64,000 nt of DNA from Patescibacteria group bacterium. Lineage in GTDB: Bacteria; Patescibacteriota; Minisyncoccia; Minisyncoccales; UBA5738. Shown piece after piece: positions 42,145 to 58,989 of this stretch. Within the stretch, counting starts at the first letter, position 1. Each line of letters begins with the position of its first letter. The translations under genes and the position numbers were made by a program. The stretch covers positions 134,522 through 198,521 of the forward strand of contig JAKLGH010000001.1 in assembly GCA_022710775.1 (NCBI GenBank), in the 5' to 3' direction. The notes under the pieces are model-generated. The model did no database searches. It was not told the DNA's origin and worked only from the letters and a program-made list of their open reading frames with translations.

Positions 42145-42177
42145 GCAAAAAAACCGGATTGCTTGTTTCCGGTTTTT
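42145..42177. terminator. bidirectional terminator (aaaccgga-ttgcttgtt-tccggttttt)
   Basis: 3' of small gene 42177..42365. Confidence 0.55.
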
Positions 42178-42365
42178 CAAATTCGAGCTTGGCCGCTATC
42201 CGGCCTGCTTTGTTTTAAAGCATTTATCTTTCTTTTCAAAGTCAACACGTTTCTTCCGGTCTCCTCGCCAAACACATCAGCAAATTCCAAAAGGATCTCG
42301 ATCAATTCATCGCTCGCCCCGTGCTGGTCTTCCAAAGCCTTGACCCTCTCAATAAGATGTTGCAT
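42177..42365 (-). CDS. small hypothetical protein (62 aa)
   Basis: ORF only; lies between the P-array and the kinase-like gene. Confidence 0.35.
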   Translation of the reverse strand: MQHLIERVKALEDQHGASDELIEILLEFADVFGEETGRNVLTLKRKINALKQSRPDSGQARI

Positions 42366-42439: not shown

Positions 42440-45400
42440 CTATTGTTCTTCCCAATCCGGAATGGACTTTTTTACCATTATGTTTTTCTCCAGCGAACAG
42501 GTATAGCCGCTGGAATCCGTAACCGTGAGCTTGGTCGTATAGTTGCCCTTGACCGGGTAAACAACCGTAAAAGTCTCAGCCACGGAAGTGTTTGGTACCG
42601 CGCCCTGGATAACCCAGGACCGGGAAGCGAACGTTGCTCCGCCGAAAACTTGCGTGTCATCGGTGTATGTCACTATATCATCCACTTTTGGATCGGCAGG
42701 GCTTAAACTGAAATCAACCGACGGATATCCGTGGAGCGGGGTCGTAAAGCCCGTTCCGGTGATCCAGCCGGATTCTTGGCCTTGGCTATCCCAAACCTTA
42801 AGGCGCCAGTAATATGCGGTATCATATTGAAGTTTTGAAGCCAGTGTTGCGTAGCTATTAGATGACGAAATTATTTTTCCCGAATCGTCGGCCGGCGATG
42901 AAAAATCGGGATCGTCGTCAACTTGCACCTGGCAGTGAGCCTGGGGATTGTTTTCAGGATCGGAGTAATTCCAGGAAAAAATAGTAGCCAAGCCGCTGGC
43001 GCAAAAATCGTTTTGAAAAACCAAAGTATCGGCGGCTGGCGGATCATTGCTCACGCTAACAGTAACCGTAGCGCTTTCGCTGGCTGCCAGGCTTTCCCGC
43101 TCAACGATCATTTTCGGAACGTAAAGGCCAGCCGCGGCGTAGGTATGATTAAGCGTTTTTACGGCGGCGCTGGAGCCGTCCTCTTTGTCGTCCCAAGCCC
43201 CGCAGGCAATAAGGCAGCCTGCTACGGTCGAACAGCTGTCGTTGCAATCGAACCAAACGGTGTAATTAATGGTACCGGCGGCAGTGCCGGATACCGTACC
43301 CGTTAAAACTACATTTAACGGAGCTGACCCAGAATCAGGAGCGGCAACAACATCAACCGATAACGTTGCCGGGCCGCCGCCGGAAACAACAGTTACAGTA
43401 TCGGTGTCGGAAGCGGTCAGGCTCGCCCGCTCCACAACGATCTTGGGAGTATAAACTCCGATGGCGGCGTAGGTATGATTAAGCGTTTTTACGGCGGCGC
43501 TGGAGCCGTCCTCTTTGTCGTCCCAAGCTCCGCAGGCAATAAGGCAGTCGGCTACGGTCGAACAGCTGTCGTTGCAATCAAACCAAGCGGTGTAATTAAT
43601 GGTACCGGCGGCAGTGCCGGACACCGTGGCCGCAAGAATAGTGGCAAGCGGAGCGTTGCCGGAAAACGGAGCCGCGGCAATATCAACCAATAACGTTGAA
43701 GCCGGGGAAACGGTAACCGTATCGCTTCCGAAGGCAACCATCGATCCGCGCTCCACGATGATCTTAGGCAGGTAAGTACCGGCGGCTGCGTAAGTATGGA
43801 CATAGCTTTTCACAGTATCGTTGGAACCGTCGTCTTTTGCGTTCCAAACGCCGCAATCAGCCACGCAGCCAACTACCGTCGAACAAGCGCTGTTACAATC
43901 ATACCAGACAGTGTAATTAACGGTTCCCGCGATATTGCCCGAAACCGTAGCGGTAATAGTCGTATCCAATGGCGCATTGCCGTGATCCGGACTAACGGCA
44001 ACCGCCACGTTCAGCGTTTTCGGACAGCTGGAACTCGCTACGCATTGGGATTCCGAAAGGCAGCCGCTGGGAGCGCAAGTCCGGTTTTGGCGCATTTGAT
44101 CCGCGGCGCAACTGCCCAAACCGCAATCGTCGTCGGCCCAAGCGGTGCAAACGCAGCATGTAGGATCGGCTACGCATTGGGTTTCAGCAAGACAAGCGGC
44201 CGGATTGCAAGTCCGGGTCTGCAATTTTTGCAAAAGCGTGCATCCGCCCGTACCGCAAGTTCCGGCGGTGCTCCACGATCCGCAGGAACAGGCAGAAACC
44301 GAAGACCTCGCTTCAGCAGTTAGACCTTCTCGCTCAATGAGGACTTTCGGCGTAGCGCTAGCAGTATATGTCGTCAATATCGAATAAGTCGCCGAAGCGT
44401 TATTGAGCGACTGATGGTCGGGTGCCTGGCAAGCGGCTTGGCAAGCGGATAAAGTGGAACAGGTATCGTTGCAATTCCACCAAAAATAGTAATTCAAAGT
44501 TCCTTGAGCGTTGCCCGAAGCTGTCGCGGTCAGCATGCTGGACAAAGGCGAGTTGCCCGATGAAGGACTAACGCTCAAGGACGCCGATAAATTTATACAG
44601 GAATTATCGGCAACGCATTGGCTCGCCGATTGGCAGCCGGCCGGATTACAAACCCGGGTCTGATTGCGCTGGCGCAAACTGCAAGTTCCTCCGCCGCAAG
44701 CTCCATTGGTCCACGAACCGCAGGAACAGCAGGTAGCGTCATTTACGCACTGGCCTTCGCTTTTACAGCCGGCCGGAGTGCAAGTCCTCGTTTGGTATCT
44801 TTTAGTATCTTGGCACGAACCTCCTCCGCATGCCTGGTTCGTCCAGGCGCCGCAAGTACAGGGTATATAGGATACTGTCGAATAAGCCGCTTGCCACGTA
44901 TAAGCCGATGTGGACGAATTCGGACCGCCGGCAATAATAAGCTTGCCGAAAGGATCCCAGCGCTGCATAATCCCGCGATAATAAACAACGAATCGGGCAT
45001 TCCCGGAAAATGACGCCGTCGGAAGCACAAAAGTCTTGTTATATGAAAATGAATTCACTTTGGAAACGCTTGAAGGACTGTAGGATCCCAGTTTGATTAT
45101 TTTAGTCGCGCCGCCGGTATTCACCGTATCGACTTCGTCGCAATAAGGAATTTTTGAACTGCCGCACCAGTCCTGGATCTTGCCGCAACAGGAAGAACAC
45201 GGGCTCCATTTACAACCTGGCCATTTTAAAGGACAAGGCACGGACGGAGAAAGTGTCGGACAGGATCCGGCCGTCGAGCAGCTGTACATCAAACAGCTTT
45301 CCTGATCGTAATATTCATCGTTGCAAGCATCGATCAAAGGCACTTTGGCGTCTTCCATCATATAAAATTCCATTATACCGCCGCTCCAGCCCGCCGTGTA

Positions 45401-45613
45401 TCCTGAAGCCGCAACGTTTGACTTTACCGTCCCCGAAAAGGTTACTGTCTGTCCGTCGGTATAGGATCCGCTGACCGGACTTGTCGGCACTATCGTAGAA
45501 CCCCAATTACCGCAGCTCATCACGTTTGTCACCGCCGCGAATGACAGATCGGGAGCGACCCAAAAAATAGCAACGAATGCCAAAAATGCGGCAGATATGT
45601 TTTTTTTGGTCAT
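42440..45613 (-). CDS. giant secreted surface-protein paralog P1 (1057 aa): signal peptide, four Cys-rich TSP1-like repeats, three tandem PKD-like modules, FN3-like domain, C-terminal PKD domain ending ..SIPDWEEQ
   Basis: signal peptide MTKKNISAAFLAFVAIFWVAPDLSFA; repeats CxCxxWxxxxCGxGxCxxxQxxQTRxCxPxxCxxxxQCVxDxxC; C-terminal ~95 aa shared with P2-P5. Confidence 0.8.
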   Translation of the reverse strand: MTKKNISAAFLAFVAIFWVAPDLSFAAVTNVMSCGNWGSTIVPTSPVSGSYTDGQTVTFSGTVKSNVAASGYTAGWSGGIMEFYMMEDAKVPLIDACNDEYYDQESCLMYSCSTAGSCPTLSPSVPCPLKWPGCKWSPCSSCCGKIQDWCGSSKIPYCDEVDTVNTGGATKIIKLGSYSPSSVSKVNSFSYNKTFVLPTASFSGNARFVVYYRGIMQRWDPFGKLIIAGGPNSSTSAYTWQAAYSTVSYIPCTCGAWTNQACGGGSCQDTKRYQTRTCTPAGCKSEGQCVNDATCCSCGSWTNGACGGGTCSLRQRNQTRVCNPAGCQSASQCVADNSCINLSASLSVSPSSGNSPLSSMLTATASGNAQGTLNYYFWWNCNDTCSTLSACQAACQAPDHQSLNNASATYSILTTYTASATPKVLIEREGLTAEARSSVSACSCGSWSTAGTCGTGGCTLLQKLQTRTCNPAACLAETQCVADPTCCVCTAWADDDCGLGSCAADQMRQNRTCAPSGCLSESQCVASSSCPKTLNVAVAVSPDHGNAPLDTTITATVSGNIAGTVNYTVWYDCNSACSTVVGCVADCGVWNAKDDGSNDTVKSYVHTYAAAGTYLPKIIVERGSMVAFGSDTVTVSPASTLLVDIAAAPFSGNAPLATILAATVSGTAAGTINYTAWFDCNDSCSTVADCLIACGAWDDKEDGSSAAVKTLNHTYAAIGVYTPKIVVERASLTASDTDTVTVVSGGGPATLSVDVVAAPDSGSAPLNVVLTGTVSGTAAGTINYTVWFDCNDSCSTVAGCLIACGAWDDKEDGSSAAVKTLNHTYAAAGLYVPKMIVERESLAASESATVTVSVSNDPPAADTLVFQNDFCASGLATIFSWNYSDPENNPQAHCQVQVDDDPDFSSPADDSGKIISSSNSYATLASKLQYDTAYYWRLKVWDSQGQESGWITGTGFTTPLHGYPSVDFSLSPADPKVDDIVTYTDDTQVFGGATFASRSWVIQGAVPNTSVAETFTVVYPVKGNYTTKLTVTDSSGYTCSLEKNIMVKKSIPDWEEQ
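43070..44010 (-). repeat. intragenic tandem repeat in P1, period ~330 bp, three PKD-like modules (two copies share an identical ~100-bp core at 43141 and 43471)
   Basis: aggtatgattaagcgtttttacggcggcgctggagccgtcctctttgtcgtcccaagc occurs twice. Confidence 0.7.
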
Positions 45614-45649
45614 AAAAACCTTTCTTTTTCAGCCTCGATTATAGGCATA

Positions 45650-48600
45650 CTACAATTCCTCCCAATCCGGCAGGCTGCTGTTCACGGTAATATCCTTTTG
45701 AAGCGAACAGGTATAGCCGTTGGAATCGGTAACCGTAAGCTTGGTAACGTAATCTCCTTTAACGGCGTAGGTAACGGCCGGAGATTCCGCAACGGAGGTG
45801 TTCGGATTAGCGCCATCGATCTCCCAGGAGCGCGAAACGATCGTTGCCCCGCCGAATACTTGGGTTAGATCGGTATAGGTAATTAGTTCAGTTGCCTTGG
45901 GCGGAGCCGGAGTAGAACTGAAATCAATCGCCGGATAAGCGTGGAGCGGCGTTGAAAAATCAGGACCGTTAACCCAGCCGGAATCATTACCCCAGCTATC
46001 CCAAACTTTAACGCGCCAGTGGTAAACAATATCGTAACCAAGTTTTGAAGCCAAAGTTACGTAGCTCGTAGATGAAGCCGCCGCTTTGCCCGTGTCGTCG
46101 GCCGGAGAGGAAAAATCCGCATTATTATCAACCTGAACTTGGCGGAAAACCTGGGGGTCGTTTTCGGGATCCGAATAGGTCCAGGAAAACATGGTGGAAA
46201 GGCCGCTGCCGCAATAATCGGCCTGCTTCAACAAGGCAGTCGCCGACGGCGGACCGTTAATGGCAGTAACCGCCACTGTGCCGGCGGCGGCAAGGTTATG
46301 GCGCTCCACGATCATTTTGGGATGGAATGTTCCCGCGGCCGCGTAGGTATGGTTAATGGTACGGGTTACGGCGGCCTGGCCGTCGGCCTTGTCATCCCAG
46401 GCTCCGCAGGAGGCCTGGCAGGCGCTAACCGTGGCGCAGGGATCATCGCAATCCCACCAGGTAGTGTAATTGATGGTGCCGACCGCCGTGCCTCCCACCG
46501 TGCCGGTAATGGCTGTGGTTAACGGCGCTTGGGCGGAAACCGGACTGGCGGCCACGGAAACCGTAAGGGTCCGGGGACAAACCGCGCTGGCAACGCATTG
46601 TGATTCAATATTGCATCCGGATACGTTGCAGGTGCGGACCTGGCGCATCTGGTTAGCCGGACAGCCGCCCAATTCGCAATCATCATCGCTCCAAGCTCCG
46701 CAGACGCAACAAGCGATATCATTAACGCATTGGGTTTGGGCAAGGCAGTTGAGCGGGTTGCAAATTCTTGTTTGTTCCCGCTGCAGCGGGCCGCAGCTTC
46801 CCGCCCCGCAGGCCGCATTAGACCAGGCGCCGCAATCGCAATAGTTCACCAAAAAATCGAGGGCGCTATCGCCCGCCAGATCCCATGAGCGCTGGTCGGA
46901 ATACGAACATTTAACGAATTTGTTCTGGCCCGCAACCTGATATTCGTAAGTGGCCGCGTTAGTATGGCAAGTATTGTTTGAAACACCGTGGATGAAATTA
47001 TATCCGGCCGGCAATCCCGAAGATATCCGGACGCAGTAGCTGTCGCCCAAGAAAATCGATTTTGCCCAATTGCCGGATGAATCCGTAGTCGCGGTTCCCG
47101 CGCCGCACAGATCAAGCACGGCATTCGGTATGCCGTTCCCTTTTTCGTCCTTGACGCTGCCGCCGATCGTTACCGGCTGCTTAACCGCAACCAGCACGTT
47201 GGGCGTGTAATCGCCAAACCATTCTTTTCCTTCCTGAATCATGCGCCATCGGAAATTATAATTTCCGGGAGTTACGGGAGCCGTAACATTAAATGAAAAT
47301 GTTTTGGAACTATTGGTCGAGACATCGCTTCCTACGCTTACCCGCGATAGACCCCAAGTGGTATTATCCTGCGGGTTCTGGGATCCTAAATTGTAATTTT
47401 TTGCCGTAGTCCAAGTGGTGTATCCGTTATTCTTCATCGTAATGGATATAGGATAGGTTTGCCCAACCGTCATAGTAGCCGGAACTGTCTGGCTGATATA
47501 TTGAGCATTGTTTCCCAACCGCTGGTAAGCAATAACCCAGCACCGCGAATTTTCCATGTAACTTGCGTCCATTGCGTCTGGATGCCACCTTTTGTATGTT
47601 CCTAGAAGCTCGATCCAAAAACGAACTCCATTGGATGTATCGAATCCGGTCGGTATGTCAAAAGTTTTATTCCATTGCGGGCTGCCTTGCAAACCATAAG
47701 GACCAACTGAGCCTAAAAGCGTAATCGGCTGACTAGCGGTGTTTAAACATCTTCGGCCGCCGCAATTATAAGTTGGAATATCCACATCCGAAGAAATGAA
47801 AAATTTAATGCTGGATATCAAATATCCTCCGCCATAAGGAGTATAGTTATGCCACAATCCTCCTCTAAAATTAACTGTTGGAGCGGATGGGCCAAGCGGA
47901 CTAGACCAAGACATCGAATCAATTGAGTATTCCGTAACGATGGTATAAGCGCTGGCTGATTGAGCGAAAAAAATCCCCGAGAGCGTAAAAAAGATTGGAA
48001 AAAATATCCAAACCATATTCCTGGAACGGTACTTCCAAACCAGAAACAAAATAAGGATAATTGCGATAAATATCGTTATCCATAAAAATACGGATTCATC
48101 CTTTTTTTCCTCAACCTCCTCGAACGCAATCGGATCCGTTTTAACATCTGCCGCTATCTCTGCCGGTTTTCCCGCTTCGTACTCGGAAAGCGTAACTCCG
48201 CCTTTGGCAATTTTAACTGAGACCAGCGGCGATGCAAAGTCTTTGTTTACGGATATGCTCCGTTCAAAAACATCGTCCTCCAGCGAACCCGAACCGTTTT
48301 CCGTTGCTATAATTTCTCCATCATCGATTATCTTGGCAGATATATCGATATCGATACCGTCTTGCACATATGTTTTCGAACCCTCCAAAGCAACCCGCAA
48401 AATAGCTGTTTCTCCGGCTAAATAGCTGGATTTATCAAGGCTTACGTCAAGAATATCCATAAAAGACGCCCCAATTTTTTCTTTGGCGATATAGCGGCCG
48501 GTTATAATATTTGACGCCGGACTTAAAGTCTTCGAATCAAAGAGCTGAATTGTGGCATTGTATATTCCCGGTTCTTTGATTTCTGGAAGTAGCAGTTCCA

Positions 48601-49294
48601 GATCCTTGCTCTCGCCCTTGATAAGCGAAATCGCGCTTCCGTCGACAGACTCATCCGCGCCGCCGCCGATAAGTTTTGTTTTTACCTTGAAGAATACATC
48701 CCTGTTCAAAACCGCAGTGTTGCCAACTTTCACCGATACCCGAGGCTGTTTTCCGACATAATGGTTTAAAAGCATCTCGATTAAAGCATCTTTTGGGTTT
48801 GGCGGATTCCAGCTTTCCAGCAACCATTTCGCTTCAGACAGCACTACTGGCGAACCGGCTCCTTTAACGGATACGGGAAATTCCCTGTAATCGAATTGAT
48901 AACCCTTTTCATTAGCCAGTATTAACTTCAATGTGGCGTTAGCTTCGGGAAGCGTATCAGGCAGAAAACACTCCGCTTCTTGGCTGATCGATCCTTCTGC
49001 CGGAAGGGTGAAAATTCCGCTAATGTCGCGCATCCACAGTTGTTTCGTTCCACTCTTATCCACGACCCACAGTTCGCAGGAAAGTGAGGTAAGCTTGTCG
49101 ATTGTTCCTCCCGAGACCGAAGCCTTAACTACTGCCCGTTCTCCGGCCTCCAACTCGCTTTCGTCAAAATAGGCTTCAAATATGCGGGGCTGGTTTTCCG
49201 AAGCCCATTCTTCAGCGTATGCCGGATAGATGGCCGCCATGCAAAATCCCATTAAAGAAAACGCGTAGATTGATATAAGTGATTTTTTTTTCAT
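45650..49294 (-). CDS. paralog P2 (1214 aa), apparently an in-frame fusion: an upstream ~425-aa secreted protein ending in a TM anchor + KYRSRN, directly followed by a new signal peptide (MVWIFFPIFFTLSGIFFAQSASA) and a ~790-aa P-type module ending ..SLPDWEEL
   Basis: no stop between ..LVWKYRSRN and MVWIFF.. (around 48020); downstream part contains two TSP1-like repeats, PKD, FN3-like and C-terminal PKD domains. Confidence 0.75.
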   Translation of the reverse strand: MKKKSLISIYAFSLMGFCMAAIYPAYAEEWASENQPRIFEAYFDESELEAGERAVVKASVSGGTIDKLTSLSCELWVVDKSGTKQLWMRDISGIFTLPAEGSISQEAECFLPDTLPEANATLKLILANEKGYQFDYREFPVSVKGAGSPVVLSEAKWLLESWNPPNPKDALIEMLLNHYVGKQPRVSVKVGNTAVLNRDVFFKVKTKLIGGGADESVDGSAISLIKGESKDLELLLPEIKEPGIYNATIQLFDSKTLSPASNIITGRYIAKEKIGASFMDILDVSLDKSSYLAGETAILRVALEGSKTYVQDGIDIDISAKIIDDGEIIATENGSGSLEDDVFERSISVNKDFASPLVSVKIAKGGVTLSEYEAGKPAEIAADVKTDPIAFEEVEEKKDESVFLWITIFIAIILILFLVWKYRSRNMVWIFFPIFFTLSGIFFAQSASAYTIVTEYSIDSMSWSSPLGPSAPTVNFRGGLWHNYTPYGGGYLISSIKFFISSDVDIPTYNCGGRRCLNTASQPITLLGSVGPYGLQGSPQWNKTFDIPTGFDTSNGVRFWIELLGTYKRWHPDAMDASYMENSRCWVIAYQRLGNNAQYISQTVPATMTVGQTYPISITMKNNGYTTWTTAKNYNLGSQNPQDNTTWGLSRVSVGSDVSTNSSKTFSFNVTAPVTPGNYNFRWRMIQEGKEWFGDYTPNVLVAVKQPVTIGGSVKDEKGNGIPNAVLDLCGAGTATTDSSGNWAKSIFLGDSYCVRISSGLPAGYNFIHGVSNNTCHTNAATYEYQVAGQNKFVKCSYSDQRSWDLAGDSALDFLVNYCDCGAWSNAACGAGSCGPLQREQTRICNPLNCLAQTQCVNDIACCVCGAWSDDDCELGGCPANQMRQVRTCNVSGCNIESQCVASAVCPRTLTVSVAASPVSAQAPLTTAITGTVGGTAVGTINYTTWWDCDDPCATVSACQASCGAWDDKADGQAAVTRTINHTYAAAGTFHPKMIVERHNLAAAGTVAVTAINGPPSATALLKQADYCGSGLSTMFSWTYSDPENDPQVFRQVQVDNNADFSSPADDTGKAAASSTSYVTLASKLGYDIVYHWRVKVWDSWGNDSGWVNGPDFSTPLHAYPAIDFSSTPAPPKATELITYTDLTQVFGGATIVSRSWEIDGANPNTSVAESPAVTYAVKGDYVTKLTVTDSNGYTCSLQKDITVNSSLPDWEEL

Positions 49295-49470
49295 TTACCG
49301 TTAAGTTAAGTTATTTCTTACGTCTATCTTATATTTTATATTTTAATGCTTATTATCGGTAACGTAAACTCTTATCAAAGGATATCTTTTAACCGCAATT
49401 TACAAACTCTTATACCTAGGTAGCCGTACGCAAAAAAGCCGTTATGGTTTTTTTAAAAGACTATCCTGGC

Positions 49471-51720
49471 CTAACCCTCCTCCCAGTCCGGAATGCTCTT
49501 CTTGACCGTAATGTTCTTTGTGGCCGAGCAGGTATAGCCTTGGGAATCGGTGACCGTAAGTTTGGTGGAATAGTCGCCTTTTGCCGCGTAGGTAACGGCC
49601 GGAGATTCCGCAACGGAGATGTTCGGATCAGCGCCATCGATCTCCCAGGAGCGCGAAACGATCGTTGATCCGCCGAATATCTGGGTTAGATCGGTATAGG
49701 TGATCAGTTCCGCCGCTTTCGGGGTCGAAGGCGTCCAGCTGAAATCGATCGCGGGATAGCCGTGGAGCGGGGTCGTGAAGCTGGGACCGCTCACCCAGCC
49801 GGAATTATTGCCCGCGCTGTCCCAAACCTTGATGCGCCAGTAGTAAGTGGTGTTGTAGGCAAGCTTGGAAGACAGAACGGTGTAGCTGGTCGATGACGCG
49901 GCCGCTTTGCCCGTGTCGTCAACCGCTGAAGAGAAATTGGAATTATCGTCCACCTGCACCTGGCGGAAAGCCTGGGGATCGTTCTCGGGATCCGAATAGG
50001 TCCAGGAAAACATGGTGGAAAGGCCGCTGCCGCAATAATCGGTCTGATTCACCAAAGCGCTCACCGACGGCGGACCGTTGATAACAGTTACCGCGACGGA
50101 ACCGGAAGCCGAAAGGCTGTGGCGTTCCACGATCATTTTAGGATGGAAAATTCCCGCGGCCGAATAGGTGTGGTTAAGAGCGCGAACCATAGCGGCCTGG
50201 CCGTCGGCCTTGTCATCCCAGGCTCCGCAGGCAGCCTGGCAGTCGCTAACCGTGGCGCAGGGGTCATCGCAATCCCACCAGGTGGTGTAATTGATGGTGC
50301 CGACCGCCGTGCCTCCCACCGTTCCGGTAATGGTCGTGGCCAGGGGGGCGTTGCCCGTGTTCGGATTAGCTGTCAGGGATAAAGTAAGGGTGCGGGGGCA
50401 GGAAGCGGAAGCCGCGCATTGGGATTCAACGTCGCAAGCGGCCGGATTGCAGGTCCGGGTCTGGCGCATCTGGTTAGCCCCGCAGGTCCCCAGGCCGCAA
50501 TCATCGTCGGCCCAGGCGGTGCAAACACAGCAGGTGGCGTCGGCTACGCACTGGCTTTGGGTCAGGCAATTGACCGGATTGCAGGTCCGGGTCTGCTGGC
50601 GCTGGAGCGTGGTGCAGCTTCCGGCGGCGCAAGCCCCATTGGCCCAGGGAGTGCAGGCGCAGGCCGGGCCGGTCACAGTAAAGGATTTCACTGGCGTTTG
50701 GTTAACGTTCCCGGCACGGTCCGTCGCTTTAAGATAATAAGTATGGGAACTGCCGGACGAGTAAGGCCCGGCGGTAAAAACGCATTGCTGTAAAGAGGTT
50801 TGGCCGGCAAAAGGACATGATTTTGCGAGAACCCCGTCAACGTAAATTGAAATATTCGTTAAACCGCTAAGAGCATCCTGGCCATTCGCGGTATAAGTTA
50901 CTGAATCCGTGTTTGCGACCGAAACCGGCGAATGGTTAATGCTCGCCGTTGGTTTTGCGCGATCAAGGCCGAACCCTATAATATCGGACTTGCCGCTTGA
51001 AGGCGAACCGATATTAAAAGGATCCACTTGTCCGTTTAACATGATATAAAAAGACCAAGTATGCCACCCATCCTGAATTCCGGTTTTTTTCACATTATAC
51101 GTACCCGCTCCACCCGATATTAGCTCATAAAACATATTGCCTTTCCCGTTCAACACGTCGTCAATCCAAATAACTCTGGTTCCGGTGGTACCATATAACG
51201 GCGTAAATTTATCGAGTTTGATCTGGTAAGTGGGATCGGTATTGATCCAGATATTTTTTGGGCCAACCGGTTCGTAATCAATCCCCTTGCCGGTTGATTC
51301 AAGATGCACATGAAGATCGGAAGTCCTGCCGGTTATGTCGTTGAAATTTGAGTAGTAGTAACAAGCGTTGAACGAACGGTAGCTGCCGCCGCCATCGATG
51401 TCCATTACGAACCTATCGTTCTTTTTCAGGCAAACAGACGCCGATGATCCGTTGGAAACGATTGCCGAATCCGTCACTTGTCCGGTTGACATCGATTCAG
51501 CGGTAAGCTTTATTTTAGCCACCTTCACTATTGCTTGGCTTGAATAGGCCCGGGTCGTTACGCGTATCTCTGCCATGCCGGAACCGCAGCTGTTGCCCTT
51601 AACCCAATCATATTGATACAGCCAGCCAGAGGTCGATCCGGCAATAGCCTGGCCGGAAAAACAAAATACCGCCAAAAAAAAAGTCGTAGCCGCAACTGTT
51701 GCAATTTGTTTTTTGGTCAT
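49471..51720 (-). CDS. paralog P3 (749 aa): signal peptide, N-terminal beta-rich domain, two TSP1-like repeats, PKD, FN3-like, C-terminal PKD ending ..SIPDWEEG
   Basis: 3' ~1.2 kb near-identical to P4 and closely similar to P2. Confidence 0.8.
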   Translation of the reverse strand: MTKKQIATVAATTFFLAVFCFSGQAIAGSTSGWLYQYDWVKGNSCGSGMAEIRVTTRAYSSQAIVKVAKIKLTAESMSTGQVTDSAIVSNGSSASVCLKKNDRFVMDIDGGGSYRSFNACYYYSNFNDITGRTSDLHVHLESTGKGIDYEPVGPKNIWINTDPTYQIKLDKFTPLYGTTGTRVIWIDDVLNGKGNMFYELISGGAGTYNVKKTGIQDGWHTWSFYIMLNGQVDPFNIGSPSSGKSDIIGFGLDRAKPTASINHSPVSVANTDSVTYTANGQDALSGLTNISIYVDGVLAKSCPFAGQTSLQQCVFTAGPYSSGSSHTYYLKATDRAGNVNQTPVKSFTVTGPACACTPWANGACAAGSCTTLQRQQTRTCNPVNCLTQSQCVADATCCVCTAWADDDCGLGTCGANQMRQTRTCNPAACDVESQCAASASCPRTLTLSLTANPNTGNAPLATTITGTVGGTAVGTINYTTWWDCDDPCATVSDCQAACGAWDDKADGQAAMVRALNHTYSAAGIFHPKMIVERHSLSASGSVAVTVINGPPSVSALVNQTDYCGSGLSTMFSWTYSDPENDPQAFRQVQVDDNSNFSSAVDDTGKAAASSTSYTVLSSKLAYNTTYYWRIKVWDSAGNNSGWVSGPSFTTPLHGYPAIDFSWTPSTPKAAELITYTDLTQIFGGSTIVSRSWEIDGADPNISVAESPAVTYAAKGDYSTKLTVTDSQGYTCSATKNITVKKSIPDWEEG

Positions 51721-51774
51721 GTTAAAGCCTATTAGCGTATTAACTTTTTTATCTGTAAAAAAATCCGGCTTAGG

Positions 51775-52242
51775 TTAATCTTTATTTGCTCCCAATACAA
51801 TGCCAAAATCCGTATCTTTTGACAAATAGACCGTATCGGCGATAAATTCCGGGGTACCGACATTTCCGCCTCTTCCAATTACGCTGATAATATCTCCCGG
51901 AATGATGTCGCTTCGCTCAACCCTTGTTCCGTCCCTAAAAATTTCCGTCGATTCCCCAATCGAAAAAGTTATCGATTCCCCGTCCTGTTCAAAAGTAAGG
52001 GCAGATGAAACCGGATCAAAAGATCCGATTTTTCCCGTCGCGCCGCTTTCGGTCTGAGACAACAAAACATTATCCGGTTTGGCGGCAGCCTCTTTCGCCT
52101 CGGAATCCTCCGGGATGATTGGCGCGATTTCGGCAGCTTCTTTCTTTTGAATTTGACGAACCGAAAAATAAACAAATATAAAGATCGTAAGAATAAATAA
52201 AAAAAGAGCAAAAATTATTATGGCGGTTTTGGCTTTATTCAT
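51775..52242 (-). CDS. small single-TM protein S1 (155 aa), partner family of the P paralogs
   Basis: N-terminal TM; C-terminal ..GDIISVIGRGGNVGTPEFIADTVYLSKD.. shared with S2 and S3. Confidence 0.6.
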   Translation of the reverse strand: MNKAKTAIIIFALFLFILTIFIFVYFSVRQIQKKEAAEIAPIIPEDSEAKEAAAKPDNVLLSQTESGATGKIGSFDPVSSALTFEQDGESITFSIGESTEIFRDGTRVERSDIIPGDIISVIGRGGNVGTPEFIADTVYLSKDTDFGIVLGANKD

Positions 52243-52278
52243 TTTAATATTGATGCTTGGATTTATAAGATATCCATC

Positions 52279-54531
52279 CTATCCCTCCTCCCAGTCCGGA
52301 ATGCTCTTCTTGACCGTAATGTTCTTTTCTAGCGAGCAGGTATAGCCGTTGGAATCGGTAACCGTGAGCTTGGTAGCGTAATCGCCCTTTGCCGCATAGG
52401 TAACGGCCGGGGATTCCGCAGCGGAAGTATTCGGATTCGCGCCTTCGATCTCCCAGGAGCGCGAAACGATCGTTGATCCGCCGAATACCTGGGTTAGATC
52501 GGTATAGGTGATCAGTTCCGTTGCTTTCGGGGTCGAAGGCGTCCAGCTGAAATCGATCGCGGGATAGCCGTGGAGCGGGGTCGTGAAGCTGGGACCATTC
52601 ACCCAGCCGGAATTATTGCCCGCGCTGTCCCAAACCTTGATACGCCAGTAGTAAGTGGTGTTGTAGGCAAGCTTGGAAGACAGAACGGTGTAGCTGGTCG
52701 ATGACGCGGCCACTTTGCCCGTGTCGTCAACCGCGGAAGAGAAATTGGAATTATCGTCCACCTGGATCTGGCGGAAGGTCTGGGGATCGTTCTCGGGATC
52801 CGAATAGGTCCAGGAAAACATGGTGGAAAGGCCGCTGCTACAATAATCGGCCTGCTTCACCAAAGCGCTCACCGACGGCGGACCGTTGATAACAGTTACC
52901 GCGACGGAACCGGAAGCCGAAAGGTTGTGGCGTTCCACGATCATTTTAGGATGGAAAGTTCCCGCGGCCGAATAGGTGTGGTTAAGAGCGCGAACCGCAG
53001 CGGCCTGGCCGTCGGCCTTGTCATCCCAGGCTCCGCAGGCGGCCTGGCAGGCGCTCACCGTGGAGCAGGGATCATCGCAATCCCACCAGGTGGTGTAATT
53101 GATGGTGCCGACCGCCGTGCCTCCCACCGTTCCGGTAATGGTCGTGGCCAGGGGGGCGTTGCCCGTGTTCGGATTAGCTGTCAGGGATAAAGTAAGGGTG
53201 CGGGGGCAGGAAGCGGAAGCCGCGCATTGGGATTCAACGTCGCAAGCGGCCGGATTGCAGGTCCGGGTCTGGCGCATCTGGTTAGCCCCGCAGGTCCCCA
53301 GGCCGCAATCGTCATCGGCCCAGGCGGTGCAAACGCAGCAGGTGGCGTCGGCCACGCACTGGCTTTGGGCGTCGCAGGCCACCGGATTGCAGGTCCGGGT
53401 CTGCTGGCGCTGGAGCGTGGTGCAGCTTCCGCCGGCGCAAGCCCCATTGGCCCAGGGAGTGCAGGCGCAGGCCGGTGCGGTAACATTAAAAGATTTCGTC
53501 GATGTTGTGGTCTTGTTCCCTGCCAGGTCAGTGGCAACCGCGTAATAATTATGGCTGCTGTTGGCGGCATACGGTCCGCCTGCGTATTGGCAGGTTTGGG
53601 CGCTGACCGCGCCGGAAAAATTACAGGTTTTCTTTACCGAACCGTCGACGTAAATGCTCACGGTATCCAAACCGCTCAACGCGTCTTGCGCGTTTGCCGT
53701 GATCGTTACCGTGGACGTACTGTCCGGCGATGCCGGACTGTGGCTTACGCTGGCAGTCGGTTTGGCTCGGTCGATGCCGTAGCCTACCCAGGGAGCAACC
53801 CCGCTATATAACGGATTGGGCTGATTATTAAAACCAAGCTTGAAGAACCATTGGTGCCAACCATCGGATAAGCCAAGCTTTGGCAAATTGTATTTTCCAA
53901 CCCCGCCGGAAACGTTGACCGTGCTGTATTTCTTATTGCCATTGAACGAATCGGCCATCATAATTACTGAAAGTGAAGTGGCGCTATGAACGCCCGGCAT
54001 TGAAGCTAATTGGACCGTAAACTGAGGATCGTAATTCACCCAAACATTATTTGGAAAAGCCGAAAAATAAGCCATTCCTTGGCTGATCGGCGTTAAATGG
54101 ACATGCGAATCCCATTTTGCTCCAACTGATTGTGCGGGACTGGTTGGATAATAAGATGTGTAAAAATCGTGGTAAGAAGAAGTTTCATCAACGATCGTCT
54201 CAACAGACTCATTGTAAACATCAAGGCAAATATATGATGTTGTGCCGGTACCCGAAACCGACCTGACTATCTTGTTGTCAGATTGCCGTCTTATGTTGAG
54301 CGTAATATTGCTGCTAGCTATATTTTCCGTAGTTCCCTTTAAAGCAAGAACTCTTATCAGCGCCCCGTTAGAACCGCAAGCTGAAGAATTACCGGCTTCA
54401 ACTTTAACTTGCCAGCCATAATTGGCTTGCGCAGAATCAATACTGCAAAAACCGCCAAAGAAAAGCAAGCAGCAGATAAAAAAATTTTTAAAATATTTAT
54501 AATAATTTGAAGCCATGTAAATTATTAACAA
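52279..54531 (-). CDS. paralog P4 (750 aa), same architecture as P3, ending ..SIPDWEEG
   Basis: see P3. Confidence 0.8.
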   Translation of the reverse strand: MLIIYMASNYYKYFKNFFICCLLFFGGFCSIDSAQANYGWQVKVEAGNSSACGSNGALIRVLALKGTTENIASSNITLNIRRQSDNKIVRSVSGTGTTSYICLDVYNESVETIVDETSSYHDFYTSYYPTSPAQSVGAKWDSHVHLTPISQGMAYFSAFPNNVWVNYDPQFTVQLASMPGVHSATSLSVIMMADSFNGNKKYSTVNVSGGVGKYNLPKLGLSDGWHQWFFKLGFNNQPNPLYSGVAPWVGYGIDRAKPTASVSHSPASPDSTSTVTITANAQDALSGLDTVSIYVDGSVKKTCNFSGAVSAQTCQYAGGPYAANSSHNYYAVATDLAGNKTTTSTKSFNVTAPACACTPWANGACAGGSCTTLQRQQTRTCNPVACDAQSQCVADATCCVCTAWADDDCGLGTCGANQMRQTRTCNPAACDVESQCAASASCPRTLTLSLTANPNTGNAPLATTITGTVGGTAVGTINYTTWWDCDDPCSTVSACQAACGAWDDKADGQAAAVRALNHTYSAAGTFHPKMIVERHNLSASGSVAVTVINGPPSVSALVKQADYCSSGLSTMFSWTYSDPENDPQTFRQIQVDDNSNFSSAVDDTGKVAASSTSYTVLSSKLAYNTTYYWRIKVWDSAGNNSGWVNGPSFTTPLHGYPAIDFSWTPSTPKATELITYTDLTQVFGGSTIVSRSWEIEGANPNTSAAESPAVTYAAKGDYATKLTVTDSNGYTCSLEKNITVKKSIPDWEEG

Positions 54532-54532
54532 G

Positions 54533-55018
54533 TTATAAAACCAAAAAAGGCTCGTTAAAAGGCTCGTTATCTATTTCAGTCGCATAAATCGAATCGGCTT
54601 TGATATCGGTCGAAGATTCCGTTTCTCCGCGGCCGATAACGCTGATCAAATCCCCTTCGATCAAAGAAGCGGATTTAACTTGTAAATTATCTTTAAAGAT
54701 CACTGTGTTTTCAGTAAGGCTTACGTTATATGTCTTTTCGGGCGCGGCAACCGTCAATGATCCTGATTCAAGATCGATCTTTTCCAAAATGCCGGTAAAA
54801 GAAATCTTAACCGCAGCACCAGTACTGTTTTCGGTCTCGACCACGCTGGCGGCTTCTTGATCCCGTTCATCGGAATTCTTTGAAAACGCACTTTCGTTTT
54901 TTTCGTTTTTCTTTCCATCTTTCTCGGTATTTTCTGCGTTCAATAACAATAGAAGAGCAGCAATGAAAATAATTGCCAAGGTAAAGAATATTACAGACGT
55001 TTTAGTTGATATTTTCAT
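54533..55018 (-). CDS. small single-TM protein S2 (161 aa); its stop abuts the P4 start
   Basis: ..IEGDLISVIGRGETESSTDIKADSIYATEID.. Confidence 0.6.
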   Translation of the reverse strand: MKISTKTSVIFFTLAIIFIAALLLLLNAENTEKDGKKNEKNESAFSKNSDERDQEAASVVETENSTGAAVKISFTGILEKIDLESGSLTVAAPEKTYNVSLTENTVIFKDNLQVKSASLIEGDLISVIGRGETESSTDIKADSIYATEIDNEPFNEPFLVL

Positions 55019-55080
55019 ATGTTAAAAAATTTTAATCAATGATTATTATATTATAGCCCTAATCTGCTGTTTCAATAAGC

Positions 55081-57957
55081 CTATATCTCTTCCCAATCCG
55101 GAATACTGCTCTTAACGGTAACTTCTTCTTCCAGCGAGCAGGTATAGCCGTTAGAATCGGTAACCGTAAGCTTGGTCGTGTAGTCCCCTTTGACGTTATA
55201 TAAAACAACCGGAGATTCCGCGACAGAGGTGCTCGGATTCGCGCCTTCGATCTCCCAGGAGCGCGCGACAATTGTAGCTCCGCCAAATACCTGGGTTTGG
55301 TCGTCGTAAGTAATCGCCTCCCACACTTTTATCCGGCCCGGAACAAAGTCAAAATCCACCGCCGGATAACTGTGCAGCGGGGTCGTAAAATCTGATCCGT
55401 TGATCCAACCCGAATCGTTTCCTTTATCGTCCCAAACCTTAAGCCGCCAATGGTAAGTAGTATTGTAGGCAAGGCTGCTGGCTAAAGTTACATAACTTGT
55501 AGAAGAAGTCGCAATTTTACCGGTATCGTCGGCCGGCGAGGAAAAATCGGAATCGTCGTCCACCTGGATCTGGCGGAAGGTCTGGGGATCGTTCTCGGGA
55601 TCGGAATAGTTCCAAGAGAATATCGTCGATAAACCGATGGCGCAGAAATCGTTTTGTTTAACAAGAGTATCGGCGGACGGAGGGGCGTTGAGAGCAATGA
55701 CGTCAGCGATGTCGGAAGCAACCAGGCCTTGGCGTTCCACGATCATTTTAGGATGGAATGTCCCGGAAGAAGAATAGGTATGGTCAAGAATTCGGGTAGA
55801 CACGCCAACCCCGTCGGCCTTGTCATCCCAGGCTCCGCAGGCAGCCTGGCAGCCGCTCACCGTAACGCAGGGATCATCGCAATCCCACCAGGTGGTGTAA
55901 TTGATGGTGCCGACCGCCGTGCCTCCCACCGTTCCGGTAATGGTCGTGGCCAGGGGGGCGTTGCCGATATCCGGAGCTGCCGCCAGGGATGCCGTGAGAG
56001 TTCTGGGACAGCTCGCGCTGGCCGCGCACTGGCTTTCGGCAAGGCAGGCAGCCGGAGTGCAGGTCCGGGTCTGGCGCATCTGGCTGGCACCGCAGGTTCC
56101 CAAGCCGCAATCGTCGTCGGCCCAGGCGCCGCAGGAACAAACTGGCGCGTTAACAGTGACGGTCACGCGCCCGCCGTTGAACAAACCTTGCCGCTCGACC
56201 ACGGTTTTAGCATAGTACGTTCCCGCAACGGTATAAGTATGGTTTGCGGCATAAGTAGCGCTGGCTTGGTTCAATGACGTGATATCCTGAACTCCGCAAG
56301 CGGTTTGGCAGGCAGCCAGACTGGTACACGTACTGTTGCAATTCCACCAAACATAGTAATTGATGTTTCCGGAGGCGGTTCCGCCGACGGTCGCGTTCAG
56401 CGTCGACGCGAGCGGAGCGTCTCCCTGCCAGGGATTCATGGTCATTAATAGCGACAAACTCGGAGGCGGGGTGCCGCAGGCCGCGTGGTTAGCGCATTGC
56501 CAATCCGCGGCACAACCCCAAGGCATACAATTTCGAGTTTGGGTCATTTGGGTGATAGGGCAAGGGCCGCCGCACGCGATATTTGACCATGCGGTGCAGG
56601 AACAGCTTGAACAAGCGGCATCGGCAACGCACAAATTATTAATGTCGCACCCTACCGGATTGCAGGTCCGGGTCCGCAAACGCTGGGCGGCGGTACAGCC
56701 TCCGGCGGCGCAGGAACCATTAACCCAAGCCGTGCAGGAGCAGGATCCGCCGCAGGCGGCGTCGGCTACGCACTGGCTTTCGGCGTCGCAGGCGGCCGGA
56801 GTGCAGGTCCGGGTCTGCTGGCGCTGGGCGGCGGTACAGCCTCCGGCGGCGCAGGAGCCGTTAACCCAAGCCGTGCAGGAACAGGATCCGCCGGAAATGG
56901 TAAAGTTGGCGGTCGCCAAAGTCTGGATATTCCCCGCGCGATCCCTTGCTACCGCGTAATAGGAGTGGCTGGATCCGGCGGCGTAGGGGCCGACGACTAC
57001 CGAACAGGTTTGCTGGGTAGTTTCTCCGGCGAAATTACAAGTCTTTACGGATGTTCCGTCAACAAAAATTTGAGCGGTATCCATTCCGCTTAATACGTCT
57101 CTCACAGGCGCCGTTATGGTAATTTGATCGTCGCTGTCAGGAGCGGCGGGAGATTTTGAAGCCGAAGCAACCGGTTTGACCCGATCGATCCCATATGCGG
57201 TATCTACGCCGCGGCTGCTAACCGGTTTCCCGTTTTCAACTGATGACCCGTTTAAAAAAAGATAATACGACCACATACGCCAGCCATCCGACAAACCCTT
57301 GGGACCGATCGTTTTTAAACCGGTTCCCGAAGGATAATTTTGCAGCCATTGCGTCACAACACTGTTAAAATTGTCCATCAATATAATGTTCAACAAACCG
57401 GTAATATTGTGAATGCTCGGATAGGATATCAGGTTTATCTTAAATTGAGGATCATAGTTTATCCATCCGGAAACTGGTTCAACGGCCTGGTAGTTAGGCC
57501 CCTGGGCCGTTGCGGCCAAATGAACGTGATGAGTAACGGTAGTACCGCTCAACAAAGGCGTTCTATCGCCGAAATGAACGTAAAAGTCCCAATAATTAGA
57601 TCCGCCGACAATCGTAATTACGTAAGCGTATGCGAAGTTCGAGGAAACGCAAAAAGCCATGCTCGATGAGTTGTAAACGGTGTTTGACTGAACAACAACG
57701 TTATTTCGGGAAATCGTAACGCTAAATTGGCTGGGATTCGCCGCCGTTTCGTTATTCCATTGCCTTGTGTAAAAATTAACTTTTGTTTGGCCGGCCGGAC
57801 AACCGGCTACTCCGGTTGTATCTCCATACCATAAATAGCCGGCTTGCTGGGCAAAGGCTTTCCCGCCAGGCATTGCCAACGCAAATAAAAACGCCGCCAA
57901 AAAAAATATTTCTGACGCTATCTTAAAAAATCTTCTTTTTGCAAACATTCTCGGCAT
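55081..57957 (-). CDS. paralog P5 (958 aa): signal peptide, N-terminal domain, five Cys-rich TSP1-like repeats (two from a recent 141-bp tandem duplication), PKD, FN3-like, C-terminal PKD ending ..SIPDWEEI
   Basis: as described. Confidence 0.8.
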   Translation of the reverse strand: MPRMFAKRRFFKIASEIFFLAAFLFALAMPGGKAFAQQAGYLWYGDTTGVAGCPAGQTKVNFYTRQWNNETAANPSQFSVTISRNNVVVQSNTVYNSSSMAFCVSSNFAYAYVITIVGGSNYWDFYVHFGDRTPLLSGTTVTHHVHLAATAQGPNYQAVEPVSGWINYDPQFKINLISYPSIHNITGLLNIILMDNFNSVVTQWLQNYPSGTGLKTIGPKGLSDGWRMWSYYLFLNGSSVENGKPVSSRGVDTAYGIDRVKPVASASKSPAAPDSDDQITITAPVRDVLSGMDTAQIFVDGTSVKTCNFAGETTQQTCSVVVGPYAAGSSHSYYAVARDRAGNIQTLATANFTISGGSCSCTAWVNGSCAAGGCTAAQRQQTRTCTPAACDAESQCVADAACGGSCSCTAWVNGSCAAGGCTAAQRLRTRTCNPVGCDINNLCVADAACSSCSCTAWSNIACGGPCPITQMTQTRNCMPWGCAADWQCANHAACGTPPPSLSLLMTMNPWQGDAPLASTLNATVGGTASGNINYYVWWNCNSTCTSLAACQTACGVQDITSLNQASATYAANHTYTVAGTYYAKTVVERQGLFNGGRVTVTVNAPVCSCGAWADDDCGLGTCGASQMRQTRTCTPAACLAESQCAASASCPRTLTASLAAAPDIGNAPLATTITGTVGGTAVGTINYTTWWDCDDPCVTVSGCQAACGAWDDKADGVGVSTRILDHTYSSSGTFHPKMIVERQGLVASDIADVIALNAPPSADTLVKQNDFCAIGLSTIFSWNYSDPENDPQTFRQIQVDDDSDFSSPADDTGKIATSSTSYVTLASSLAYNTTYHWRLKVWDDKGNDSGWINGSDFTTPLHSYPAVDFDFVPGRIKVWEAITYDDQTQVFGGATIVARSWEIEGANPSTSVAESPVVLYNVKGDYTTKLTVTDSNGYTCSLEEEVTVKSSIPDWEEI
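56540..56900 (-). repeat. intragenic tandem repeat in P5, period 141 bp (~2.5 copies) encoding duplicated Cys-rich module (..CSCTAWVNGSCAAGGCTAAQR..TRTC..P..CD...CVADAAC)
   Basis: gctgggcggcggtacagcctccggcggcgcagga.. recurs at 56682 and 56823. Confidence 0.7.
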
Positions 57958-57994
57958 TTTGTCATTTACGTTAGATTTTTAAAAATTGTTTCGC

Positions 57995-58235
57995 CTATAT
58001 CTCCTCCCAATCGGGTATGCTGCTTTTCACATTAATATTCTTTTCCAGCGAGCAGGCATTGATCGGTTTCAAAAATATAATACGCGCCGCTCGGACCGCA
58101 GGAAAAATCAGGCCCTAAAAAATCCATACCCCAATAATATCCCGCTTCGGATGCCTTAACATTTTTCGGAAAAACCAGGATAACCGCCAGGAATAAAATG
58201 ATTGGAACAACTCTTAATTTCATTAAAATTTGCAA
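57995..58235 (-). pseudogene. deletion remnant/mini-paralog: P-family signal peptide (MQILMKLRVVPIILFLAVILVFPKNVKASEAG..) joined, out of frame, to the last ~20 codons of a P gene (..INACSLEKNINVKSSIPDWEEI*)
   Basis: ORF 58032..58235 ends early; an adjacent frame through 57995 encodes the conserved C-terminal CSLEKNI.VK.SIPDWEE tail; a 1-nt change in a T5 run would fuse them. Confidence 0.6.
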
Positions 58236-58240
58236 AAATG

Positions 58241-58684
58241 CTATTTTATCTTGTCTCCAATTGCCGGAAACTGGATCGGCTCCGAAATATACAGGGTGTC
58301 AACGACAAAACCAGGATCATTGATAGTCTTGCCGCGGCCCAGAATCGATACGCTTGCCCCCGCTTTTATTTTTTCTTCGTCCGCCCTTTTTCCTTCGTAA
58401 AAAATTTCAACTGTCTTGGAAAGCGAAACCGGAATTTCTTTTCCGGCGCCGTCGCTGATCAATAATTTTTTATCCGGCGCGCTGAATGAAACGATATATC
58501 CCGTCAATCCCGAATGCTGCTGGCCCGGAATATAGACCTGCTGGCCGGTATTCTTTGGCGTCAAAGCTCCGGCCTTATCCGCTTTTGGCGAATTTATGGA
58601 TTTTTCTTTCCGGTATTGTAAAAACAAGCCGATTAAAACGCTCATTGTCGCTAAAAGTAAAACAATGATTATTTTCTTTTTCAT
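58241..58684 (-). CDS. small single-TM protein S3 (147 aa)
   Basis: ..KAGASVSILGRGKTINDPGFVVDTLYISEP.. Confidence 0.6.
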   Translation of the reverse strand: MKKKIIIVLLLATMSVLIGLFLQYRKEKSINSPKADKAGALTPKNTGQQVYIPGQQHSGLTGYIVSFSAPDKKLLISDGAGKEIPVSLSKTVEIFYEGKRADEEKIKAGASVSILGRGKTINDPGFVVDTLYISEPIQFPAIGDKIK

Positions 58685-58902
58685 ATGGCGCTTTTAAATT
58701 GATGAAAAATATCCTTACAACTCAATAAAAATCAGACATCGTTTCGAATAGATGCTGGCATAAAACGGCAGAAAAGAAACGCTTTCCTCAATACTCATCG
58801 ATTAATATATTATAATGTTTTATCCCGATTTCTCAAACTGGTTCTTTGGCTATCTTTTTTGAATTTCGCGCCGGTAGTCCGAACAAACTGAAAAACATCA
58901 GT

Positions 58903-58935
58903 TCTTACAATTCCTCCCAATCCGGCCGGCTGTTG
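58903..58935 (-). pseudogene. ~30-bp relic of a P2-like 3' end (..RPDWEEL*; ttacaattcctcccaatccggccggctg vs P2 ctacaattcctcccaatccggcaggctg)
   Basis: sequence identity to the extreme 3' end of P2 followed by unrelated sequence. Confidence 0.5.
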
Positions 58936-58989
58936 TTACCCTTAAATATTTTACCATTATTAAGGGCTTTGCGAACTCTGAACGTCTAA

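Follow-up and report, generated by a model that had tools for sequence, protein, structure and literature searches.

A tandem array of modular surface-protein genes in a Patescibacteria genome, with a C-terminal cassette and tail apparently linked to type IV pilus loci

The window analysed here, a stretch of 64,000 nt, was found to contain at positions 42440-58946 an array of paralogous genes (P1-P5) for large, cysteine-rich, putatively exported proteins, within which all long open reading frames (ORFs) lie on the minus strand. The best explanation for this region is that of a tandem, recombining array in a Candidatus Paceibacterota genome (Candidate Phyla Radiation, CPR/Patescibacteria). Each of the five proteins ends with a C-terminal cassette and a short tail which are apparently widespread in Patescibacteria, undescribed and linked to type IV pilus (T4P) loci, and the array represents this Patescibacteria cassette class in a form which is locally expanded and modified, akin to the PilY1-like non-pilin pilus or surface adhesins. 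The favoured reading, to which a probability of about 0.5 is assigned, is that the array is an expanded, recombining satellite set of Sec-exported modular surface adhesins whose cassette and tail dock onto the T4P minor-pilin tip/priming complex or another surface partner. Host recognition and attachment by ultra-small CPR bacteria are largely unknown, with type IV pili having been implicated, and the adhesive components of Parcubacteria-type lineages have not yet been identified.

An FN3-like domain and a PKD domain, followed by the tail, make up the last 205 residues of each P protein, and this cassette is encoded at 42443-43057 in P1, 45653-46267 in P2, 49474-50088 in P3, 52282-52896 in P4 and 55084-55698 in P5 (all minus strand). 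PKD and FN3-like domains, both of which had been proposed in an initial annotation of this DNA, were the only ones recognised by Pfam in P1-P5. The FN3-like family Ig_Rha78A_N (PF25788) was matched by all five proteins at 31.7-47.3 bits (cutoff 27.4) and the PKD family (PF18911/PF00801) by P1-P4, with PKD_4 scores of 55.7, 33.9, 30.0 and 30.6 bits, respectively (cutoff 27); P5 reached 22.7 bits, under the cutoff, with a sequence which is clearly homologous. All five termini read (S/L)(I/L)PDWEE plus one residue, and the last 95 aa share 65-89% pairwise identity, so that the PDWEE end described initially holds for every protein while the wording 'almost invariant' for this region was too strong. 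A cassette scan of one genome per species, with confirmation by tblastn, identified at least 350 stretches in species genomes, and every named record is from Patescibacteria/CPR, including Paceibacterota, Nealsonbacteria, Portnoybacteria, Wildermuthbacteria, Giovannonibacteria and 'Saccharibacteria'. The members from other species are 45-80% identical to the P cassettes over 205 aa and agree with them in P(-2), W(0) and E(+2), and P, W and E were invariant when the five cassettes were aligned with distant members (database proteins P0139 and P0109, ending ...LPLPIWKEIAPF).

The tail census and the neighbourhood analysis were carried out on 80 fetched loci (numbered with the prefix L), 74 of which provided 81 complete cassette ORFs. 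The motif P.W.E was found at most 11 residues from the stop in 67 of these 81 ORFs, and the consensus of the tail is (L/F)P-L-P-x-W-(R/K/E/Q)-E-(I/V)-x-P-(F/W), i.e. LPxWxE(I/V)xP(F/W) followed by the stop codon, with Pro at +5 in 57/59 and Phe or Trp at +6 in 31/43. Most tails stop 0-4 residues past the motif. Among 1641 scanned ORFs of at least 100 aa (cassette ORFs included), none carried the tail motif other than the cassette ORFs. The tails of P1-P5 are without the P(+5) and F/W(+6) of the consensus, and PDWEE is, judging from these alignments, a shortened form of a Patescibacteria-wide tail which has lost its xP(F/W) end. This, together with the occurrence of the cassette in at least 350 Patescibacteria stretches, overturns the initial suggestion of a lineage-specific system. 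The same tail was also found on an unrelated C-terminal domain (P0016, P0017, P0042-P0044 and others) and for this reason is a portable terminal element, more than the last strand of a PKD domain. No model covering the tail exists in Pfam or NCBIfam, and no description was found in literature searches for the tail motif and for CPR sorting signals. An amphipathic/hydrophobic C-terminal helix of ~22 residues was observed in the cassette ORFs of L015, L059, L061, L064, L072 and L076, as for example in ...PEWREVPP-MIWLKNIFAGIVSLFNGFLKIN; in L015, L059, L064 and L076 the helix comes after the motif of the tail or after the ...VPP/IPP with which it ends. Such a helix may represent an alternative membrane-associating end.

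For the neighbourhood analysis, neighbour ORFs were clustered without prior assumptions and the families obtained were then checked by Pfam. The commonest neighbours of cassette genes were three pilin-like families, a PilB-like ATPase, PilC, PilD and PilM, with Pfam confirmation by N_methyl, T2SSF, Peptidase_A24 and PilM_2. The three small pilin-like families occur in 30, 26 and 24 loci, where they share the strand of the cassette gene, at median distances of ~0.1, 0.7 and 1.2 kb downstream of it, with some loci having them upstream or several kb off. T4P genes were present within the fetched flanks of 38 of the 80 loci (34 of the 59 loci of at least 10 kb), and the order cassette gene, pilin, pilin, pilin, small protein was seen in 18 loci. 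The cassette proteins in T4P loci possess Sec-type leaders, not prepilin leaders, and many of the T4P-linked proteins are only ~360-480 aa in length with little beyond the cassette. Tail-bearing proteins without the cassette point in the same direction, two of the three looked up being in or beside complete T4P clusters (P0013 inside, P0017 beside). Because of this genomic context of the homologues, the most likely cell-surface structure to which the P proteins would attach is the T4P minor-pilin complex. A correlation of the truncated tail with the absence of adjacent pilin genes was considered and rejected, as L017 and L022 have short tails beside pilin genes. Repeats of the SGYAWSENIGWVSFN type were observed in the N-terminal parts of pilus-linked cassette proteins of L021, L022, L028 and L078. 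Tandem arrays of 4-7 radical-SAM genes with a multi-transmembrane protein of ~400 aa, which has a GDAKLF motif and no Pfam match, lie upstream of the cassette gene in many T4P-linked loci (L017, L018, L019, L023, L024, L039 and L043); the window has one homologous radical-SAM gene at 25175-26068 (plus strand), far from the P array.

Read 5' to 3' on the minus strand, the gene order of the array is P7 stub, S3, deleted P6, P5, S2, P4, S1, P3, P2, P1, a 62-aa ORF and the gene of a Ser/Thr kinase. The five intact P genes (749-1214 aa) lie where the initial annotation had placed them, and the signal peptides that it had assigned were seen as N-terminal hydrophobic leaders with an AxA-like cleavage site; the proteins contain 28-63 Cys residues each. 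P1 (42440-45613, 1057 aa) possesses a signal peptide, a Cys-rich N-terminal region, four Cys modules, five Cys-bearing PKD-like domains and the C-terminal cassette, ends with SIPDWEEQ and has an identical match in the databases (entry P0004). P2 (45650-49294, 1214 aa; end SLPDWEEL) has a signal peptide, an N-terminal ectodomain of ~395 aa, a two-helix transmembrane (TM) hairpin detected by hydropathy scan at aa 398-446 (47957-48103), Ig-like domains, two Cys modules, a PKD domain and the cassette, with the hairpin dividing the protein into two extracytoplasmic halves. Besides its signal peptide and the cassette, P3 (49471-51720, 749 aa; end SIPDWEEG) has a variable N-terminal domain, one Ig-like domain, two Cys modules and a PKD domain. 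The same architecture is found in P4 (52279-54531), which is 750 aa from a TTG start and 745 aa from the ATG at 54516, the NCBI start. P5 (55081-57957, 958 aa; end SIPDWEEI) combines a signal peptide and a variable N-terminal domain with four Cys modules, two PKD-like domains and the cassette. The possibility that P2 represents two genes merged by a sequencing error was ruled out because the layout of signal peptide, ectodomain, hairpin and cassette is kept in several other species (L008, L009, L013, L018 and L074), including loci directly upstream of minor-pilin genes.

The P proteins were not found to contain any recognisable anchor at the C-terminus, as had been stated initially. No C-terminal TM helix or hydrophobic segment was detected in P1-P5 by the hydropathy scan, and no known C-terminal sorting signal (LPXTG/sortase, PEP-CTERM, PGF-CTERM, GlyGly-CTERM or T9SS CTD) was matched with NCBIfam, either in P1-P5 or in ten further proteins bearing the tail. 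When the S proteins were included with these, Pfam and NCBIfam returned no known sorting or anchoring domain. Pfam also gave no WxL, SLH, LysM or other wall-binding domain and no PilY1 beta-propeller domain in any P protein, and no catalytic or toxin domain was found in them. In the databases they are matched best by hypothetical proteins from metagenome-assembled genomes (MAGs) of Candidatus Paceibacterota. Close relatives are few, with only 19 for P4 among 5.8 billion clustered proteins, and those which have a complete C-terminus and cassette end with PDWEE or PEWEE.

Fourteen Cys modules of 43-45 aa were identified in P1-P5 by regular expression and alignment, at two to four per protein; the modules themselves had been recognised initially, with a count of two to five that is thus to be corrected. 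They are located on the minus strand at 44024-44860 in P1 (two at 44597-44860 and two at 44024-44290), 46577-46840 in P2 (two), 50398-50661 in P3 (two), 53206-53469 in P4 (two) and 56008-56883 in P5 (three at 56476-56883 and one at 56008-56139). Eight Cys, W6, G14 and R25 are invariant in all 14, and the predicted structure of the first P4 module has three strands at a pLDDT of 91. In a search of 1.84 billion with a profile built from the 14 modules, 551 cluster representatives were retrieved at E <= 1e-3, and the module is a real, rare extracellular module for which there is no Pfam model. The label 'thrombospondin type-1-like' given to it initially holds only in the sense of a weak structural resemblance. 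Pfam TSP_1 did not match the modules even at E <= 10, and no thrombospondin type-1 repeat (TSR) was found when the profile was compared with PDB sequences. In structure comparisons TSRs rank at or near the top for the module but below significance. A TSR has six conserved Cys residues (three disulfides) and a WxxW(xxW) ladder stacked with Arg, whereas the module has eight invariant Cys, a single invariant Trp and one invariant Arg, and membership of TSP_1 by sequence was rejected; a TSR-like fold is plausible, not established. Literature searches for thrombospondin-like modules in CPR bacteria gave nothing relevant. The names of the family members (P0026-P0168) carry little taxonomic information, one of them being in a MAG labelled Deltaproteobacteria and described as VWD domain-containing and another, from Woesebacteria, being named 'TNFR-Cys domain-containing' by UniRef. 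The C-termini of module-bearing proteins were found to vary between a TM helix with a basic tail, dockerin-like repeats, an amphipathic helix, a PEF/PGF-like end and a W-x-E-(V/I)-A-P tail, and because of these differing ends the C-terminal position looks like a slot for anchoring devices.

Three small proteins are encoded between the P genes, namely S1 (51775-52242, 155 aa), S2 (54533-55018, 161 aa) and S3 (58241-58684, 147 aa), all on the minus strand. Each has an N-terminal TM helix, a linker and a predicted OB-fold domain; in S2 the helix is at residues 6-30, the linker is disordered and the OB-fold domain occupies residues 70-147. Their mutual identity is 29-32%, and GD.(I/V)SV(I/L)GRG and D(T/S).Y, a motif which had been noted initially, are common to them. 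The S2 stop lies 1 nt before the TTG start of P4, in agreement with the abutment reported initially, and 16 nt before the NCBI ATG. The placement of S1 and S2 immediately 5' of a large P gene was likewise borne out, while S3 precedes the deleted P6 and not P5. Iteration of an S-family HMM on the 80 loci identified 15 S-like ORFs. For 12 of them a cassette gene follows in the same orientation, with the S-like ORF at most 2.2 kb upstream of it, often abutting it and sometimes in two to three copies (L011, L012, L022, L034, L042, L044, L076 and L088). An S-like gene is found just 5' of a cassette gene in ~8-10 of the 80 loci, and none was detected in L008, L009 or L010, nor in ~70 of the 80. The idea of S as a dedicated partner is supported by the recurrence 5' of cassette genes (L011, L012, L022, L034, L042, L076 and L088) and fails as far as an obligate pairing is concerned, and a role for S as universal partner of the tail was rejected. 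The S-P pairing is real and recurrent, but with only some 10% of the loci having it and close relatives being without it, S is to be regarded as an accessory partner outside the core.

The S family is smaller than that of P, with six clusters, and a metagenome scan for S relatives gave no confirmed relative. PilY2 and other extracytoplasmic OB folds (DUF5666, CusF-like) share a sequence identity of ~15% with S; the OB fold is a very common one, and against S the OB domains of cytoplasmic nucleic-acid-binding type reach scores which are just as good. The syntenic contig L001, from a relative, contains a P C-terminus (RIPDWEE followed by the stop), an S gene, a 63-aa ORF and a kinase gene, whereas L006 and L007, from two other relatives, have P, a 67-aa ORF and the kinase gene with no S, and the more distant genome L008 has four tandem P-like genes with no S-like ORF in 17 kb.

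Two decayed P genes, which had been missed initially, were identified at the 5' end of the array. The P6 remnant (57994-58235, minus strand), recognised through a family of repeats (D10) and translations, consists of a signal peptide and ~60 N-terminal codons of the P3-P5 type fused out of frame to the last 20 codons of a P gene, CSLEKNINVKSSIPDWEEI followed by the stop (...SSIPDWEEI), and a P7 3' stub of 12 codons, KGNNSRPDWEEL and the stop (SRPDWEEL), was read directly from the sequence at ~58905-58946 (minus strand). These remnants show that there were formerly more P genes in the array, one of which had S3 in front of it. Between P3 and P4 the DNA identity is 44-57% in the first 1050 nt, where the proteins are 39% identical, and 87-98% in the 3' 1200 nt, with the jump at about nt 1050 coinciding with the start of the Cys modules. 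Orthologues in other assemblies (P0001 and P0002) are P3/P4 mosaics within the FN3-like domain, a pattern which indicates gene conversion or possibly chimeric assembly. On the basis of the P3/P4 identity pattern, the orthologue mosaics and the two remnants, the history of the array shows duplication, gene conversion of 3' halves and deletion. The pattern of divergence is that expected for variable heads on a constant attachment end.

PilY1 possesses a signal peptide of type I, a variable N-terminal and a conserved C-terminal region and a gene located beside four minor-pilin genes, and several paralogous sets per genome are possible (PMC7541494). The signal peptide, the variable N-terminal region and the conserved C-terminal region are all found in the P proteins, and the position beside minor-pilin genes is found in many homologues and not in the window. 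The homologues of the P cassette thus have the same gene layout beside minor pilins as the PilY1/PilC-type non-pilin tip adhesins of Pseudomonas, Myxococcus and Neisseria. They differ from these in that the P proteins have no beta-propeller, their conserved part being the FN3-like domain, the PKD domain and the short tail, and in that the window copies are not beside pilin genes. The T4P loci of Saccharibacteria (TM7x) encode PilX1 and PilX2, which are large, non-canonical tip candidates and proposed host-binding adhesins (PMC11623550). When compared by description only, PilX1/PilX2 resemble the P proteins in being from CPR bacteria, in being large and encoded in T4P loci (for P, in the case of its homologues), in the absence of a PilD-type leader and in having accessory binding domains, while their domains are beta-jelly-rolls and beta-propellers instead of Cys modules, PKD and FN3-like domains, with no common tail reported.

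According to the favoured reading, the P proteins would be Sec-exported, disulfide-rich, modular surface adhesins in which the fast-diverging N-terminal region is probably the ligand- or host-binding part and the 44-residue eight-Cys modules and Cys-bearing PKD domains may form a stalk. The cassette and tail would act as an attachment module onto the T4P minor-pilin tip/priming complex or another cell-surface partner, a docking role parallel to that of the conserved C-terminal domain of PilY1, and the window would contain a satellite repertoire of interchangeable adhesin heads. The S proteins, whose genes are probably co-transcribed immediately 5' of several P genes, would, as membrane-tethered OB-fold proteins, assist P in the capacity of holder, chaperone or receptor, and this accessory role would be confined to some lineages. 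The adhesin/secretion-anchoring system proposed in the initial annotation is upheld in so far as the paralogs are secreted, modular and adhesin-like; a new secretion or anchoring system is not, as the context of the homologues points to T4P.

Several observations weigh against an attachment to pili. No pilin gene was found in the window with prepilin motifs and with pilin-family HMMs built here, and its sole T4P-type gene is a T2SSE-family (PilB/PilT-like) ATPase gene at 20285-21487 (minus strand), 21 kb from the array and with no pilin, PilC or PilD gene nearby. The same search gave no adjacent pilin genes in the nearest relatives (L001, L006, L008-L010 and L042), and the link to the pilus rests for this reason on the more distant homologues. 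The local tail is without the xP(F/W) end, and its partner may have changed. The P2-type TM hairpin fits a location at the cell surface better than one at the pilus tip, and adjacency to T4P clusters could reflect co-regulation and not pilus assembly.

These points leave some room for non-covalent retention at the surface in the manner of WxL/WxLIP proteins, although this is considered rather unlikely. The cassette and tail would then bind the wall or envelope together with a membrane-tethered partner (S and/or the P2 ectodomain with its hairpin), and T4P adjacency would reflect the co-regulation of attachment functions only. The WxL/WxLIP (DUF916-DUF3324-TM) clusters of Firmicutes combine large surface proteins, which have binding domains at the N-terminus and an anchoring element containing Trp at the C-terminus, with a small membrane-anchored partner (PMC10599100), and the P/S genes resemble these clusters in all of this, with a putative N-terminal binding part and a Trp-containing tail in P and with S as the small membrane-anchored protein. 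However, the P proteins do not possess a WxL domain, in which two W-x-L motifs are present as opposed to the single W-x-E of the P tail, and WxLIP is an Ig pair with a C-terminal anchor while S has its anchor at the N-terminus and a predicted OB fold. Retention of this type is also difficult to reconcile with the lack of any Pfam wall-binding domain in P and with the absence of S from most cassette loci, including the PDWEE-tailed close relatives L008, L009 and L010, and it leaves the very strong enrichment of T4P genes beside cassette genes unexplained.

A processed sorting signal is very unlikely. On this account a dedicated enzyme would recognise P-x-W-x-E and cleave the protein or attach it covalently to the envelope, and this enzyme might be a transpeptidase, either sortase-like or of the L,D type, or else the multi-TM protein fam13. 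The strict conservation of the motif at the extreme C-terminus is in keeping with such processing, and the ~22-residue helix following the motif in L015, L059, L064 and L076 recalls motif-plus-helix sorting signals. Genes for possible enzymes are also present, with fam13 (with a GDAKLF motif that was read by eye as prepilin-peptidase (A24)-like) located 4-59 nt upstream of the cassette gene in ~10 loci and an L,D-transpeptidase gene at 33648-35180, ~7 kb from the P array. Yet the short distance from the motif to the stop leaves most tails without a helix which could hold a precursor in the membrane, and the conserved residues past the motif (P at +5, F/W at +6) argue for their own retention on maturation. 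The array of the window has no gene for a sortase or peptidase, and fam13 has no Pfam match. Free extracellular release of the proteins as host-binding toxins or nutrient-scavenging factors, with a C-terminus which merely stabilises the terminal PKD domain, would suit the purely extracellular-type domains of the stalk and the want of a recognisable anchor but is very unlikely, given that the same tail ends unrelated domains, that the motif is conserved phylum-wide on genes placed in T4P operons and that the proteins have no catalytic or toxin domain.

Returning to the favoured reading of docked, Sec-exported adhesins, it is tentatively suggested as an extension that the LPxWxE(I/V)xP(F/W) tail could be a previously undescribed Patescibacteria docking signal, loading Sec-secreted non-pilin proteins with interchangeable heads onto the T4P minor-pilin complex or a dedicated surface receptor. 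S would be the holder or receptor in some lineages, and the arrays would be a host-recognition repertoire. If this were true, arrays such as P1-P5 would represent the variable host-recognition repertoire of episymbiotic CPR bacteria. The cassette and tail provide a sequence-defined flag for candidate pilus-associated or surface adhesins, and the tail is possibly a simple search key for adhesin repertoires in the thousands of CPR genomes. The family of eight-Cys modules, with no curated model, and the recurrent small OB-fold partner are further gains of the analysis.

Some features were observed beside the array and elsewhere in the window. The region's best sigma-70-like promoter match is at 58836-58809 (minus strand), ~125 nt upstream of S3, with TTGAGA, a 16-nt spacer and TATAAT (11/12 positions); beyond this site the promoter and terminator scan of the region gave nothing above expectation, with no convincing intrinsic terminators between the array genes. 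The 62-aa ORF (MQHLIERVKALEDQHGASDELIEILLEF...) between the P array and the kinase gene is located at 42177-42365 (minus strand), and its homologues of 63 aa in L001 and 67 aa in L006/L007 occupy the same position. The window begins with an AT-rich stretch (positions 1-2000, GC 0.32) which holds a 274-aa ORF at 1142-1966 (minus strand), starting ...FTHQYSLAKTLRFELKPIGKTRENM and matching Pfam REC1 (PF18501, alpha-helical recognition lobe domain) with an E-value of 2.5e-21. This ORF appears to be Cas12a-like by its N-terminal sequence and to represent a truncated fragment in a low-GC island.

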